Notes: generated by a model from the letters alone, not told the origin. Shown: positions 4,781 to 11,478, counted from the first letter of the stretch. The stretch: DNA of 12,045 nucleotides from a virus (IMGVR_UViG_3300041407_000052:92348-104392); one strand, 5' to 3'. Made by a program: numbers and translations.

Positions 4781-4808
4781 AACAAAAAGCCCGCTCGTGG
4801 CGGGCTTC
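4781..4808 (-). terminator. Rho-independent terminator of the tRNA operon
   Basis: AAGCCCGC-cacga-GCGGGCTT then TTTGTT on minus strand. Confidence 0.85.
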
Positions 4809-4985
4809 TATTAATCGTTACTATCTCATTACCGTCTAATGACTCGACCTTGTTATAGGTTAGTTGAACTGCCACGTTAGTGGTCACGATGTCGTTCTTA
4901 CAATTCCTTGTCGGGTAATTGTTTTGTTTAGTCGCTTGAAGCGCCGTTCAAGTCTTTCTTTTACGGGACAGCACCCGGACTAGCT

Positions 4986-5482: not shown

Positions 5483-5565
5483 TGGTGGATCAGGTTGGAC
5501 TCGAACCAACAATGCATTCAGCGGGGAGTTACAGTCCCTTGGGTTACCAATTACCCTACTGATCC
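5483..5565 (-). tRNA. tRNA-Tyr(GUA)
   Basis: Acceptor GGATCAG/CTGATCC, loop CTGTAAC, extended variable region, T loop TTCGAGT, A73, CCA; 1 nt from tRNA-Pro. Confidence 0.93.
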
Positions 5566-5567
5566 TT

Positions 5568-5660
5568 TTGTTATTAGGTAGCTCTACCGACTGAGCTTAC
5601 TCCGGTGTATACCACCAGAAATGGGACTCGAACCCATGCACACCAAGCAACTGTTAACAA
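5568..5660 (-). ncRNA. Circularly permuted tRNA-like RNA, module 2 (YrlA/Y-RNA-like topology)
   Basis: 5'->3': TTGTTA..TTGGT, GTGC, T arm ATGGG-TTCGAGT-CCCAT, closed acceptor TTCTGGT-ggtatac-ACCGGAG, TAA, D arm GCTC-AGTCGGTA-GAGC, T, ACCTA..TAACAA. Confidence 0.72.
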
Positions 5661-5731
5661 GCGATGTTCTCAAGCTTGCTTGAATTAGATCCGGTACACA
5701 ACAGTCTGACTAGTATCGAGAGTTGAATACC

Positions 5732-5812
5732 TGTTGAGTTTACCTGATCGCAGCCGGTTTGCAACTTCCGGTCAAGGAAGGTGGGAATCGAACCCATATC
5801 AGTTATCTCACA
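5732..5812 (-). ncRNA. Circularly permuted tRNA-like RNA, module 1 (YrlA/Y-RNA-like topology)
   Basis: 5'->3': TGAG-ataa-CTGA, T arm ATGGG-TTCGATT-CCCAC, closed acceptor CTTCC-ttgacc-GGAAG, D arm TTGC-AAACCGGCT-GCGA, TCAG-gtaaa-CTCA. Confidence 0.58.
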
Positions 5813-5965
5813 TAATGGGGCGTATACCCCGTTCGCTATTGTTGACTTATGTCGAATAGCATTTCTACGAATTTGGATTCCAATAATAGGCTGTACGTTT
5901 ATCCTATTCTACTATTAATCCACGTTGGTCAACCCGTGGTAGTTTTCTACTTTCAACATAGAATT

Positions 5966-6039
5966 TGGTGCCCCAGTAGAGAATCAAACTCCAATCCCCG
6001 GATTACAAAACCGGTGCATCATCACAATGCTTCAAGGGC
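5966..6039 (-). tRNA. tRNA-Thr(UGU), non-canonical
   Basis: Acceptor GCCCTTG/CTGGGGC, D stem GCAT/ATGC, loop TTTGTAA in CCGG/CCGG stem, T loop TTTGATT, CCA. Confidence 0.8.
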
Positions 6040-6926: not shown

Positions 6927-6958
6927 ATTATATAGAAACACTCCAATACTGTCAATAC
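6927..6958 (-). promoter_or_regulatory. Perfect-consensus sigma70 promoter of the tRNA operon
   Basis: GTA-TTGACA (6955-6950), 17 bp, TATAAT (6932-6927). Confidence 0.88.
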
Positions 6959-9067: not shown

Positions 9068-10204
9068 ATGCAAGTAATCGAATTTATCAAACAGAACGGT
9101 ACTGATGCAGAAAGCATCGAAGCAGGTCTGAAAGCTTTGACGGAACAGTTCGCAATCAGTGTCAAGAAAGTGGATGACCTTCTGGTTCTGAACTACAACC
9201 AGATTGATAGCCCGAAGACTCATCCTTATGTGATGGAATGTCGCAGTCTGATTCTGGAAGCCGAAACACTGAATGTTGTTAGTCGTTCCTTTGATCGCTT
9301 CTTCAACTATGGTGAGGCATTGAATGTCATGCCTGAGATTGACTGGAAGCGTGCTGTAGCCTTTGAAAAGGTTGATGGTAGCCTGATTAAGATATACAAC
9401 CACAAAGGTCACTGGTACATCTCTACTAAGGGTACAGCATATGCAGACAGTGATTGCATGGGTTATGGTGTTACATTCAGGGAATTGGTTTGGAAAGCAA
9501 TCGGTGTAAGCAATGACGAAGAGTTCCAGCTGAAAATGCGTATGTGCATCTTTGATGAATCTGTAACTTATATGTTCGAACTGACATCAGTTGAGAATCG
9601 TGTTGTCAAGCGTTACGATGGATACAAACTACATTTCTTGGGTGCACGGTGCAATGACACGGGTATGTATGTTTGTGAGGAAGAGAAGAACTGGTTCCTT
9701 GATCCACACAGCGATATTGACTTTATTCACTACCCTAAAGAATACCGATTCAACACCGTTGAAGAATGTCTGCGTACTTCTCGTGAGTTGAAAGACCTTG
9801 ACGAAGGTTACGTTATCTACCAAGATGGTGTTCCGATTGCAAAAGTGAAGTCGCCAGCTTATGTTGCTGTGCACCATATTCGTGGTGAAGGTTTGAATCC
9901 TAAGCGAATTATGCAACTGGTACTAGTGAATGAGCAAGATGAATACTTGCAATACTTCCCAGAAGATCGTGAAGTGTTTATTCCTTATGTTGAAGCTAAG
10001 AATACACTTGACCATCAACTACATGCTGTGTACAATTCTTGCAAATGGATTGATAATCAAAAAGAGTTTGCCGTTCACGCTCAACAATATCCTTTTAAAT
10101 CAGCATTGTTCCAAGCACGAGCTAAGCAGATTGGTGTTCTTCAAGCATTCAACGATCAGCGCGAAAGTTACAAAATGGAAATTCTCAAGGAGTATGTAGT
10201 TTGA
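9068..10204 (+). CDS. rnlA: RNA ligase, T4 Rnl1 family
   Basis: 378 aa; motif I EKVDGSL, MFELTS (III), EGYVI (IV), KVKS (V); GAGGAG RBS. Confidence 0.92.
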   Translation: MQVIEFIKQNGTDAESIEAGLKALTEQFAISVKKVDDLLVLNYNQIDSPKTHPYVMECRSLILEAETLNVVSRSFDRFFNYGEALNVMPEIDWKRAVAFEKVDGSLIKIYNHKGHWYISTKGTAYADSDCMGYGVTFRELVWKAIGVSNDEEFQLKMRMCIFDESVTYMFELTSVENRVVKRYDGYKLHFLGARCNDTGMYVCEEEKNWFLDPHSDIDFIHYPKEYRFNTVEECLRTSRELKDLDEGYVIYQDGVPIAKVKSPAYVAVHHIRGEGLNPKRIMQLVLVNEQDEYLQYFPEDREVFIPYVEAKNTLDHQLHAVYNSCKWIDNQKEFAVHAQQYPFKSALFQARAKQIGVLQAFNDQRESYKMEILKEYVV

Positions 10205-10599
10205 AAGGTTATGTAAATGTGCACGTTGATCAAATCAATGAAGCAGTTGCTGGGTTCAATAAACAACGTGCTGCTGGTAAAGTTATTCGAGATAAAGGTA
10301 TTGAACTGTACTACCAAAAGTATTTCACAGATGGTAGTTGGTTAACCAAATGGTTGAATCGAAACCGCACACCGATTCAATTTGCTAGAAAGAATGTTCC
10401 AGCATTTGGTAGCTGGGATGATTTATTTCACTCAGTGTTGACAACTGAAGAAAATGATCTTCTTGGTTGGTGGGCATGGAACAACAGCGACCATAAGATT
10501 CAACCTCTTAAATCACTTGTTTCACAATCAGCAACTGGGTTCGTACTGGTTGATAATGAAATGGCAACAATGATCGAAAATTATAGGAGTTACAAGTAA
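10201..10599 (+). CDS. Hypothetical protein (132 aa)
   Basis: TTG start overlapping ligase stop (TTGA), GGAG RBS; abuts PseT gene. Confidence 0.72.
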   Translation: MKGYVNVHVDQINEAVAGFNKQRAAGKVIRDKGIELYYQKYFTDGSWLTKWLNRNRTPIQFARKNVPAFGSWDDLFHSVLTTEENDLLGWWAWNNSDHKIQPLKSLVSQSATGFVLVDNEMATMIENYRSYK

Positions 10600-11478
10600 T
10601 TGAAAGCGTTTATTACAGTTGGTGTAAGTGCAAGTGGTAAAACCACATTTGCAAATGAGCTTGTTGCTCAAGGTTTCCGTGATATTAATCGGGATTACAT
10701 TCGATTCAATGTCGTATGTCCGGGTTCGAACTGGAGCAACTACAAGTTCAATGGTAAGAACGAAAAGGAAGTAACCCAAATCCATGAACAAATGATCTTG
10801 GAAAGTTGGGCTCGTGAAGAGAATATTGTAATCAGCGATACCAACTTGAATGCGGGTCGTCGTAACAATCTGGTGCGAACGCTCCAAGACCTTGGCTATG
10901 TTGTTGAAATCAAAGAGTTTCATGTTGCACAAGAGACGGCGTACAAGCGTGACCGTCTGCGACCAAATGGTGTTGGTGAAGGTGTAATCTATCGTCAGTT
11001 CAAAGATTACCATGATTATGTCGGGCGTCTGACATATGTTGCTGATGAAAGTTTGCCGAAAGCTGTTATCTTTGATGTTGACGGAACCATTGCAAGCATG
11101 GATGGTCGTGGTCCATTTGAATGGAAACGTGTTGGTGAGGATAACCCTCGTGAATTCGTAATTCAAATGTTGCGTAACTATGCAATGATGGGTTACATTA
11201 TCATTATCTGCTCAGGTCGAGATGATATCTGCCGTGGCGAAACCATCGAATGGTTGAATGAAAAAGTAGGCGAGATGTTTTATCATTTGTTGTATATGCG
11301 TAAGAATGGTGACTTCCGAAAAGATAATGCTGTAAAAGAAGAAATCTTCTGGACACACCTCGCACATAAGTATAACATTGTTGCCTGTGTTGATGACCGA
11401 CCACAAATGATTCGTCTTTGGCATGAATTGAAGATTCCAAACGTGATCGCTGTCGCTGATCCGTACATTGAGTTTTAA
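10600..11478 (+). CDS. pseT: Polynucleotide 5'-kinase/3'-phosphatase, T4 PseT family
   Basis: P-loop GVSASGKTT, INRD, RxxxR (RDRLR); HAD phosphatase DVDGT, SGR, DDR; TTG start. Confidence 0.93.
   Translation: MKAFITVGVSASGKTTFANELVAQGFRDINRDYIRFNVVCPGSNWSNYKFNGKNEKEVTQIHEQMILESWAREENIVISDTNLNAGRRNNLVRTLQDLGYVVEIKEFHVAQETAYKRDRLRPNGVGEGVIYRQFKDYHDYVGRLTYVADESLPKAVIFDVDGTIASMDGRGPFEWKRVGEDNPREFVIQMLRNYAMMGYIIIICSGRDDICRGETIEWLNEKVGEMFYHLLYMRKNGDFRKDNAVKEEIFWTHLAHKYNIVACVDDRPQMIRLWHELKIPNVIAVADPYIEF

Follow-up and report, generated by a model that had tools for sequence, protein, structure and literature searches.

The domain of transfer-messenger RNA (tmRNA; RF00023) that resembles transfer RNA (tRNA) combines a T arm and an acceptor helix with a D 'loop' that lacks a stem, and a helix continues where the anticodon arm would be; permuted two-piece tmRNA genes place the T-arm side ahead of the 5' acceptor side. 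Permuted tRNA genes are also known from the red alga Cyanidioschyzon merolae, in which the 3' half comes first and the products mature to real tRNAs with an anticodon arm. A permuted arrangement of T arm, loop-closed acceptor-like stem and D-like element characterizes YrlA, the Y RNA-like RNA of bacteria and mycobacteriophages (RF02553; PMC4201824), and the Yrl1 and Yrl2 RNAs of the Thermus phage phiLo (PMC12135203), while rnaC and rnaD of phage T4 (species 1 and 2 RNAs; NC_000866) are small stable RNAs of 139 and 119 nt encoded in a phage tRNA cluster. Here, we describe a permuted tRNA-like element, named module 2, located at positions 5732 to 5812 of a 12,045-nucleotide stretch of viral DNA (IMGVR_UViG_3300041407_000052:92348-104392; hereafter the window), the final 12 kb of a phage record from IMG/VR that is complete at 104 kb. 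Our analysis favors, as a reasonably probable reading, that this segment forms the apical part of a structured non-coding RNA (about 220 nt; 5654..5873) that had not been catalogued before, lies within a tRNA operon and ends in a tip that mimics the tRNA elbow. The structural part of this claim, namely a conserved multi-helix RNA whose tip is built like the top half of a tRNA, appears very likely. The unit resembles the YrlA and tmRNA domains in its working and T4 rnaC/rnaD in its siting, yet it belongs to no family among these. The coordinates of the unit, of module 2 and of a separate element called module 1 are all given on the minus strand.

Homologs of the unit were found in six further records (L003, L004, L005, L006, L013, and L015) through the terminase and conserved strings, so that it is kept in all seven records including the window, always in tRNA clusters. 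The modules carried by these seven sequences belong to five sequence types, A (window and L003), B (L005 and L004), C (L006), D (L013), and E (L015), each of which was parsed by hand and the parse checked against the sequences. In the window (type A), the 5' strand of helix P3, TGTGAG (5807..5812), pairs with CTCAACA (5738-5732) and is invariant in 7/7 sequences. It is followed by the entry/exit stem CTGAT/ATCAG (5798..5802 with 5748-5744), by the T arm (5781..5797; ATGGG 5797-5793, loop TTCGATT 5792-5786, CCCAC 5785-5781) and, after a linker of 0 nt, by the capped acceptor-like hairpin (5765..5780; CTTCC 5780-5776, loop TTGACC, GGAAG 5769-5765). A stretch of 16 nt (5749..5764) with a GG dinucleotide at 5755-5754 then leads back into the entry/exit stem, which closes the module. 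An earlier note on this DNA had listed the same architecture at these minus-strand coordinates, P3 included, and the present parse bears it out with two amendments. The T arm is present, but its outermost A.C is unpaired and the stem has 4 bp; similarly, the D-like arm described in the note can form as a 4-bp stem in the window sequence, as seen in an enforced fold, but it is not conserved and only the GG is kept across the types.

The T-loop consensus (U54 U55 C56 R57 A58, with the closing pair G53-C61) is found throughout, with TTC.A invariant in all seven sequences and the loop closed by G-C in six of the seven and by U.G in L005. The contention that such an arrangement is not due to chance was sustained by two results. 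The string GGTTCRANNCC occurs 6 times in the window against 0.15 expected, all on the minus strand and inside the tRNA cluster (4 in tRNAs and 2 in the modules), and enforcing the permuted fold in the unit (223 nt folded) gave -58.3 compared to -58.4 for the minimum free energy (MFE) structure, a cost of 0.1 kcal/mol. In contrast, the normal-order fold that had been put forward as an alternative (GTCAA 5846-5842 with TTGAC 5775-5771) costs about 11 kcal/mol. In L003 and L004, a compensated change in helix P1b turns GTCAA into ACCAA and abolishes this fold, and in L004 and L005 it is broken by differences in the hairpin loop itself.

Despite its likeness to a tRNA, module 2 departs from a complete cloverleaf, as its entry/exit stem runs on into the invariant P3 and not into an anticodon loop. 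Neither ARAGORN nor the Rfam tRNA model (RF00005) made a tRNA call at 5732-5812. Moreover, the acceptor-like stem is capped by a loop of 4-10 nt in all types, in place of the open 3' CCA end of tmRNA. With a loop sealing its acceptor end and no anticodon arm, module 2 can be neither charged nor used in decoding, and it is a mimic of the tRNA shape rather than a tRNA.

The entry/exit stem has 4-5 bp in every type, with a 3-nt bulge in type C, and is formed by different strands across types (CTGAT/ATCAG, CATTA/TAATG, CTTAT/ATAAG, CTTG/CAAG, and C-TGC/GCA-TTT-G). Every type has a T arm of 4-5 bp with the loop TTCRAYY, the second pair of the T stem being U-A, A-U or G-C depending on the type. The capped hairpin is also present in all five, with 5-7 positions of unrelated sequence beginning 0-1 nt after the T stem, and in one type its loop is a GAAA tetraloop. 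Together, T stem and capped hairpin make up 10-12 positions in all types, mismatches included, which may be compared with the 12-bp acceptor/T stack of tRNA. The module stems keep their pairing through covariation between genomes. When the variable letters were shuffled and scored per type, an anchored 4-bp entry/exit closure arose in 2-3.6% of shuffles and a hairpin of at least 5 bp at the same place in 12-23%, and four of the five types passed each test as scored. Besides, a covariance model built from type A alone (R1) recovered 7/7 modules with 27-115 bits, and 95.6% of the cells of its alignment were paired, with 10/20 pairs changed on both sides; this alignment was fitted to the model, and the hand parse is the better record.

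No D stem is shared among the types: it has 4 bp in type A, is reduced to a 2-bp closure around GAKGG in types B and E, and is lacking in C and D, while a GG occurs in a stretch of 12-16 nt in every type. Because no D stem is shared, module 2 is nearer to the tRNA-like domain of tmRNA, which is likewise devoid of one, than to a complete tRNA elbow. Both combine a T arm with an acceptor-like helix and continue into a helix where a tRNA would have its anticodon arm; in module 2, however, the acceptor is capped, there is no CCA and no tag reading frame is conserved. An identity as tmRNA was rejected because of the missing frame and the capped acceptor, and ARAGORN found no tmRNA while Rfam matched the T arm only, with 12 bits. 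With regard to the tag frame, the region downstream of the module evolves by compensatory helix changes.

Module 2 caps helix P3 of the unit, in agreement with one of the two suggestions of the earlier note, that it could be part of a larger RNA. The remaining scaffold comprises the P1/P1b hairpin (5835..5860) of the near-invariant 5' domain, with two P1b pairs double-changed in L003 and L004; the P2 hairpin GGGGU...GCCCC (5817..5830), preceded by the invariant linker GAAC; the long hairpin P4 (5693..5731), with compensatory changes in 7/10 pairs; and the P5 hairpin (5656..5680), which has the conserved loop TTGAGAAYATC, two double-changed pairs and two pairs with a change in one strand only. 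The helices P1, P1b, P2, P3, the T stem, P4, and P5 were backed by RNAalifold and by counting pairs in a MAFFT alignment of the seven sequences. Over 43 scaffold pairs, 97.3% of the cells were paired compared to 33-45% when the partners were slid, and both-sided compensatory changes were observed in 13 scaffold pairs compared to 0-3 in the slid controls. Searches of Rfam 15 at gathering and E-value thresholds gave no match to the scaffold or to module 2, the sole trace in the unit being a 12-bit tmRNA fragment match on the 15-nt T arm. In addition, the 5' scaffold is 81-100% identical between records, compared to 72-94% for the rest of the tRNA cluster, and this higher conservation points to a constraint at the sequence level on P1-P2.

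The module itself follows a different course. Between types, the module core shows 61-69% identity, against 81-100% for the 5' scaffold and 74-96% for the P4-P5 part. The contrast is sharpest among close relatives: the window and L005, whose terminases are 100% identical, share 99%, 61%, and 96% identity in the 5' scaffold, the module and the 3' part, respectively, and the corresponding values for L013 and L015 are 100%, 62%, and 94%. As gradual drift cannot yield such low identity in a module between near-identical flanks, these alignments indicate that the module is replaced by recombination between the near-invariant flanks, in the manner of a swappable cassette. A mosaic distribution was likewise observed for the P1b variant, which is common to L003 and L004 and not to L003 and the window. 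No recent tRNA origin of the cassettes could be recognized, as no match to tRNAs extended beyond the length of the T arm.

Several observations weigh against the reading of the segment as the tRNA-like tip of a conserved RNA. Helix P3, which carries the module, is invariant in all seven sequences, and its pairing is consequently conserved without the support of covariation. As the types have no D stem in common, a full tRNA-like elbow is at most a possibility. The sample amounts to only seven sequences and five module types, the R1 alignment leans to structure and misplaces the hairpin of three types, and the T arm is missing from the MFE structures of three types. Moreover, the nearest isolated phage, the Pseudomonas putida phage phiPMW, has no unit and its tRNA-Thr is directly followed by tRNA-Pro, so the unit is dispensable in this phage group. 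Finally, contigs from RNA libraries that carry the 5' scaffold may contain DNA and show presence in the library, but neither transcription nor transcript ends. These contigs come from one soil study and two peat studies and match the 5' scaffold at 95-99% identity; in our reading, X16 and X17 continue into a type B module and X18 into a type D module, and one contig covers the whole unit with its center replaced. They lend weak support to expression of the unit.

The search for the unit was also extended beyond the seven records. In a distant-mode blastn search against isolated phages, the only matches were to tRNAs and to a 92-nt neighboring element described below, and the unit is absent from Pseudomonas phage Pyxpy01. 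A metagenome scan with a 20-base gapped scaffold pattern retrieved only the contig already known as L005, a scan of genome contigs gave no match to the unit, and two more viral scans returned chance matches only, for example L032 in a ClpS-like coding region. Likewise, full-text searches of the literature found no description of the ~220-nt RNA. Comparison with the T4 region gave only matches of T-arm length (11-20 nt) to rnaC/rnaD. T4 rnaC (L036 1409-1547), a known stable RNA with a tRNA piece, ends in a canonical T arm (CCGGGTTCGAATCCCGG) followed by 9 nt; it thus shares the T arm with module 2, but carries it at the 3' end and in normal order.

The genomic setting recalls that of T4 rnaC and rnaD, embedded in a phage tRNA operon. 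The tRNA cluster of the window (minus strand, 6690-4986) is bracketed by a single sigma-70 promoter of perfect consensus upstream (6927..6955, minus strand; hexamer matches 12/12) and by a single intrinsic terminator after the last tRNA (4785..4809, minus strand; a 10-bp stem and then a T run), and a simple scan of the minus strand beside the unit gave no promoter- or terminator-like site. Module 2 lies between tRNA genes, in a gap of 403 nt with tRNA-Thr(UGU) (6039-5969) upstream and tRNA-Tyr (5565-5483) downstream. Alignment of the relatives splits this gap into three independent pieces, a 92-nt insert, the ~220-nt unit and module 1. The unit directly follows the CCA of tRNA-Thr in five of the seven records, and in L013 and L015 it runs almost straight into tRNA-Tyr. 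The large terminase of this phage is 78% identical to that of phiPMW, with which it also shares the gene order (kinase-phosphatase, RNA ligase, small open reading frames (ORFs), tRNA cluster, terminase).

Given this structure and setting, a working model can be proposed. The RNA would be transcribed as part of the phage tRNA operon and would probably be released by the nucleases that mature the flanking tRNAs, RNase P cutting where the next tRNA begins and 3' processing enzymes acting behind tRNA-Thr. Its tip would fold as the top half of a tRNA in permuted order, the entry/exit stem leading to the T arm and the capped hairpin stacking on the T stem to form a minihelix of 10-12 positions, while the GG stretch might dock on the T loop in the way of G18/G19 of a tRNA. 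Such a mimic may make the RNA a client of factors that read the tRNA shape, such as T-arm modification enzymes and elbow-binding proteins or RNAs, and the interaction could stabilize or target the near-invariant 5' domain (P1-P2), which we take as the working part. In the window and L003, module 1 may share the processed RNA, which would then be about 310 nt long with two elbows. A mimicry function of the tip is put forward tentatively, as a possibility short of an even chance. Taking the model further, the RNA could be a two-part device in which the tip cassette selects the host tRNA-reading factor to be engaged or decoyed (for example, a tRNA-targeting defense nuclease, RNase P or a repair enzyme) and in which cassettes are shuffled by phage recombination in an arms race, making the unit a Ro60-free counter-defense or host-takeover module; this extension is speculative and, on present evidence, rather improbable.

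Annotations of phage tRNA clusters usually list tRNAs with 'spacers' between them, and here a spacer corresponds to a conserved structured RNA of about 220 nt whose tip, imitating the tRNA shape, is exchanged among near-identical genomes. Provided that it is stable in infected cells, this RNA would represent a Ro60-independent branch of the tRNA-mimicking non-coding RNAs that include YrlA and the tmRNA domain, and a tractable case of what tRNA mimicry does for a phage, as isolated relatives infecting Pseudomonas putida exist and the cassette variants and the unit-less phiPMW could serve as natural controls.

Among the alternatives, the one that fares best holds that the T loop and the GG form a tertiary knot that props up the larger RNA and is never read as a tRNA, a part that T-loop motifs play in RNase P RNA, ribosomal RNA and riboswitches. 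This would agree with the fact that the only fixed letters are those of the T loop and the GG, with the lack of a conserved D stem, with stems that vary freely under pairing as the sole constraint, and with a sequence constraint that resides in the scaffold rather than in the module. On the other hand, a purely architectural role would leave unexplained why a tRNA-like stack of 10-12 positions with a linker of 0-1 nt recurs in every type, and why the unit is found in a tRNA operon, next to further permuted tRNA look-alikes of this phage group. Both points are suggestive rather than decisive, and we regard the architectural role as unlikely compared with the tRNA-like tip.

A relationship to Y RNAs must be weighed together with module 1 (5570..5651), a separate permuted tRNA-like element outside the conserved unit, composed of a T arm, a capped acceptor of 7-8 bp and a textbook D arm. 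Its acceptor-like stem is capped by a 5-nt loop and followed by U8/A9-like letters and then by the D arm. Modules 1 and 2 have the string ATGGGTTCGAnTCCCA in common, as the earlier note had reported. The note had gone on to treat the differences between the two modules as intragenomic covariation and the modules as a duplicated tandem pair. Because they are not shown to be paralogs, such covariation is no evidence by itself, and the idea of a duplicated pair is contradicted by the distribution of module 1, which occurs only in the window and L003 and is absent from the five other relatives, L013 and L015 among them. A pattern search for module 1 matched only the L003 contig, and the module 2 model sees nothing of module 1 beyond its T arm.

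According to the Y RNA interpretation, the two modules would be a yrlA/yrlB-like pair or a two-domain Y RNA that tethers Ro60/Rsr, supplied by the host, to an exonuclease. The order of T arm, capped acceptor-like stem-loop and D-like element is indeed that of the tRNA-like domain of YrlA, and module 2 further shares with YrlA, Yrl1, and Yrl2 the use of one stem for entry and exit and the occurrence in a phage. In module 2, the T arm and the capped stem-loop are conserved with covariation, but the D stem is restricted to type A and the GG is found in all types. Module 1 shows the YrlA architecture and aligned to positions 16-93 of the Rfam YrlA model, which cover the tRNA-like part only, although its score of 19.1 bits is far below the cut-off of 69 and is exceeded by a junction of tRNA-Gly and tRNA-Asn (24.5 bits). 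Junctions of tandem tRNAs are the type of false positive warned of in the YrlA study (PMC4201824). Module 2 gave no match to the same model even at E-values up to 10 (411-nt search). The invariant string AGCGAACG of the 5' domain contains CGAA and is a near-match to the Y-RNA motif GNCGAAN0-1G, differing in the first letter (A instead of G). However, it sits in the P1/P2 junction, between two hairpins, whereas the motif belongs near the 5' end, in a terminal stem; a stem closing the 5' and 3' ends is unsupported in the unit. The Y RNAs are 80-130 nt long (PMC4201824), compared to about 220 nt for the unit, and module 2 is carried on an RNA with five further helices.

The genes expected to accompany a Y RNA were also missing. 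YrlA is encoded on the strand of a Ro60/TROVE gene and at a distance of about 4 kb or less from it (PMC4201824), and no match to TROVE, DUF2828 or VWA_2 was found in the complete 104-kb phage genome, although the DUF2828 search was weak, as its control rang in no control genome. The strand of the tRNA cluster is also free of ACAGCAA, the string of a 'CAGCAA handle'. The unit is thus placed inside a tRNA operon and not beside rsr. Genes for RNA repair (an Rnl1-type ligase and a polynucleotide kinase-phosphatase (PNKP)) do occur 3-5 kb from module 2 and can be counted in favor of a Y RNA. Overall, these results do not bear out the yrlA/yrlB analogy drawn in the earlier note, and with module 1 lacking in five of the seven relatives we consider a phage Y RNA improbable.

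A third possibility is that the segment is a functionless relic, left where two tRNA genes, degenerate or duplicated in tandem, adjoin. The clusters of this group do contain degenerate tRNAs and pieces of tRNAs, including an element that scores 20.9 bits as a tRNA and fragments in L013, and a tandem tRNA duplication automatically gives the order of T arm, paired acceptor strands and D arm, as noted in the warning mentioned above (PMC4201824). Decay would hardly leave the same stems in five unrelated module sequences, or a flanking scaffold that is better conserved than the neighboring tRNAs; besides, the modules match tRNAs no further than the T arm, and the GAAA tetraloop that caps one type is not a tRNA spacer. 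A relic is accordingly judged very unlikely. The conserved tRNA-like tip is also to be set apart from a permuted or split tRNA gene whose capping loop is cut and whose outer ends are rejoined into a working tRNA, a most improbable scenario even though the phage encodes an Rnl1-type ligase and a PNKP that could do so and though module 1 has the 7-bp kind of acceptor stem that lets RNase P cut M. smegmatis YrlA and CCA be added to it, since module 2 has a cap stem of 5 bp in the window, no conserved D stem and no anticodon arm (unlike the C. merolae tRNAs), belongs to a larger RNA into whose invariant P3 its entry/exit stem continues, is uncalled by ARAGORN and the Rfam tRNA model, and is missing from phiPMW, which has the ligase and kinase.

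A function as a base-pairing small RNA was tried and rejected as well, as the complementarity of the conserved single-stranded segments to the phage genome was at chance level, the lone exception being a 12-mer that lies in paired regions.

A 7-bp stem made M. smegmatis YrlA a substrate of RNase P and a recipient of CCA (PMC4201824), and by analogy module 1 might be cut in its loop into two pieces. The ligase and kinase genes mentioned above occupy 9068-11478 on the plus strand of the window (Rnl1-type RNA ligase, 378 aa; PNKP, 292 aa), divergent from the tRNA operon, and phiPMW has the pair in the same order without the ~220-nt unit.

Other elements of these clusters deserve description. The tRNA-Thr(UGU) gene of the window (5969-6039, minus strand) scores 45 bits with Rfam and is missed by ARAGORN, with mismatches in the acceptor and anticodon stems. 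Between it and the unit lies the 92-nt insert (5968-5877, minus strand), present only in the window and L005 and flanked by the direct repeat CCAAATTC (5968-5961 and 5876-5869). A copy with about 80% identity fills the gap between tRNA-Ile and tRNA-Met of Pyxpy01. The two copies keep the loop RTAAACGTACAG and differ by compensatory changes in two hairpins (CCACG/CGTGG to CCTCG/CGAGG and ATAGG/CCTAT to ACAGG/CCTGT), and the insert probably represents one more small RNA of tRNA clusters that is both structured and mobile.

In L005 (6035-6130), L004 (6112-6211), and L006 (about 5511-5600), module 1 and tRNA-Tyr are replaced by odd tRNA-like genes of normal order that end in ...GACCACCA. The form found in L005 and L004 has an 11-nt 'anticodon' loop and reaches only 20.9 bits as a tRNA, while that of L006 has the loop CUGUAAC (Tyr anticodon) and a long variable arm and is uncalled by ARAGORN. 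Upstream of the unit in L013 (5575-5700), at the usual place of tRNA-Thr, a small ORF is followed by a permuted tRNA-like arrangement that is closed by the stem UAAAG/CUUUA and includes a capped hairpin of 6 bp, a T arm that is weak and a D arm that is good (GCTT...AAGC with GG). As this region holds another such element, permuted tRNA look-alikes recur in this phage group. Lastly, the 19-tRNA cluster of Pyxpy01 (L034, record 96245-101236) includes unannotated gaps of 94-417 nt, several of which hold T-loop-bearing elements and hairpins with ...ACGTACAGCC / ...ACTACAGCATC motifs, likely to be further uncatalogued small RNAs or odd tRNAs.
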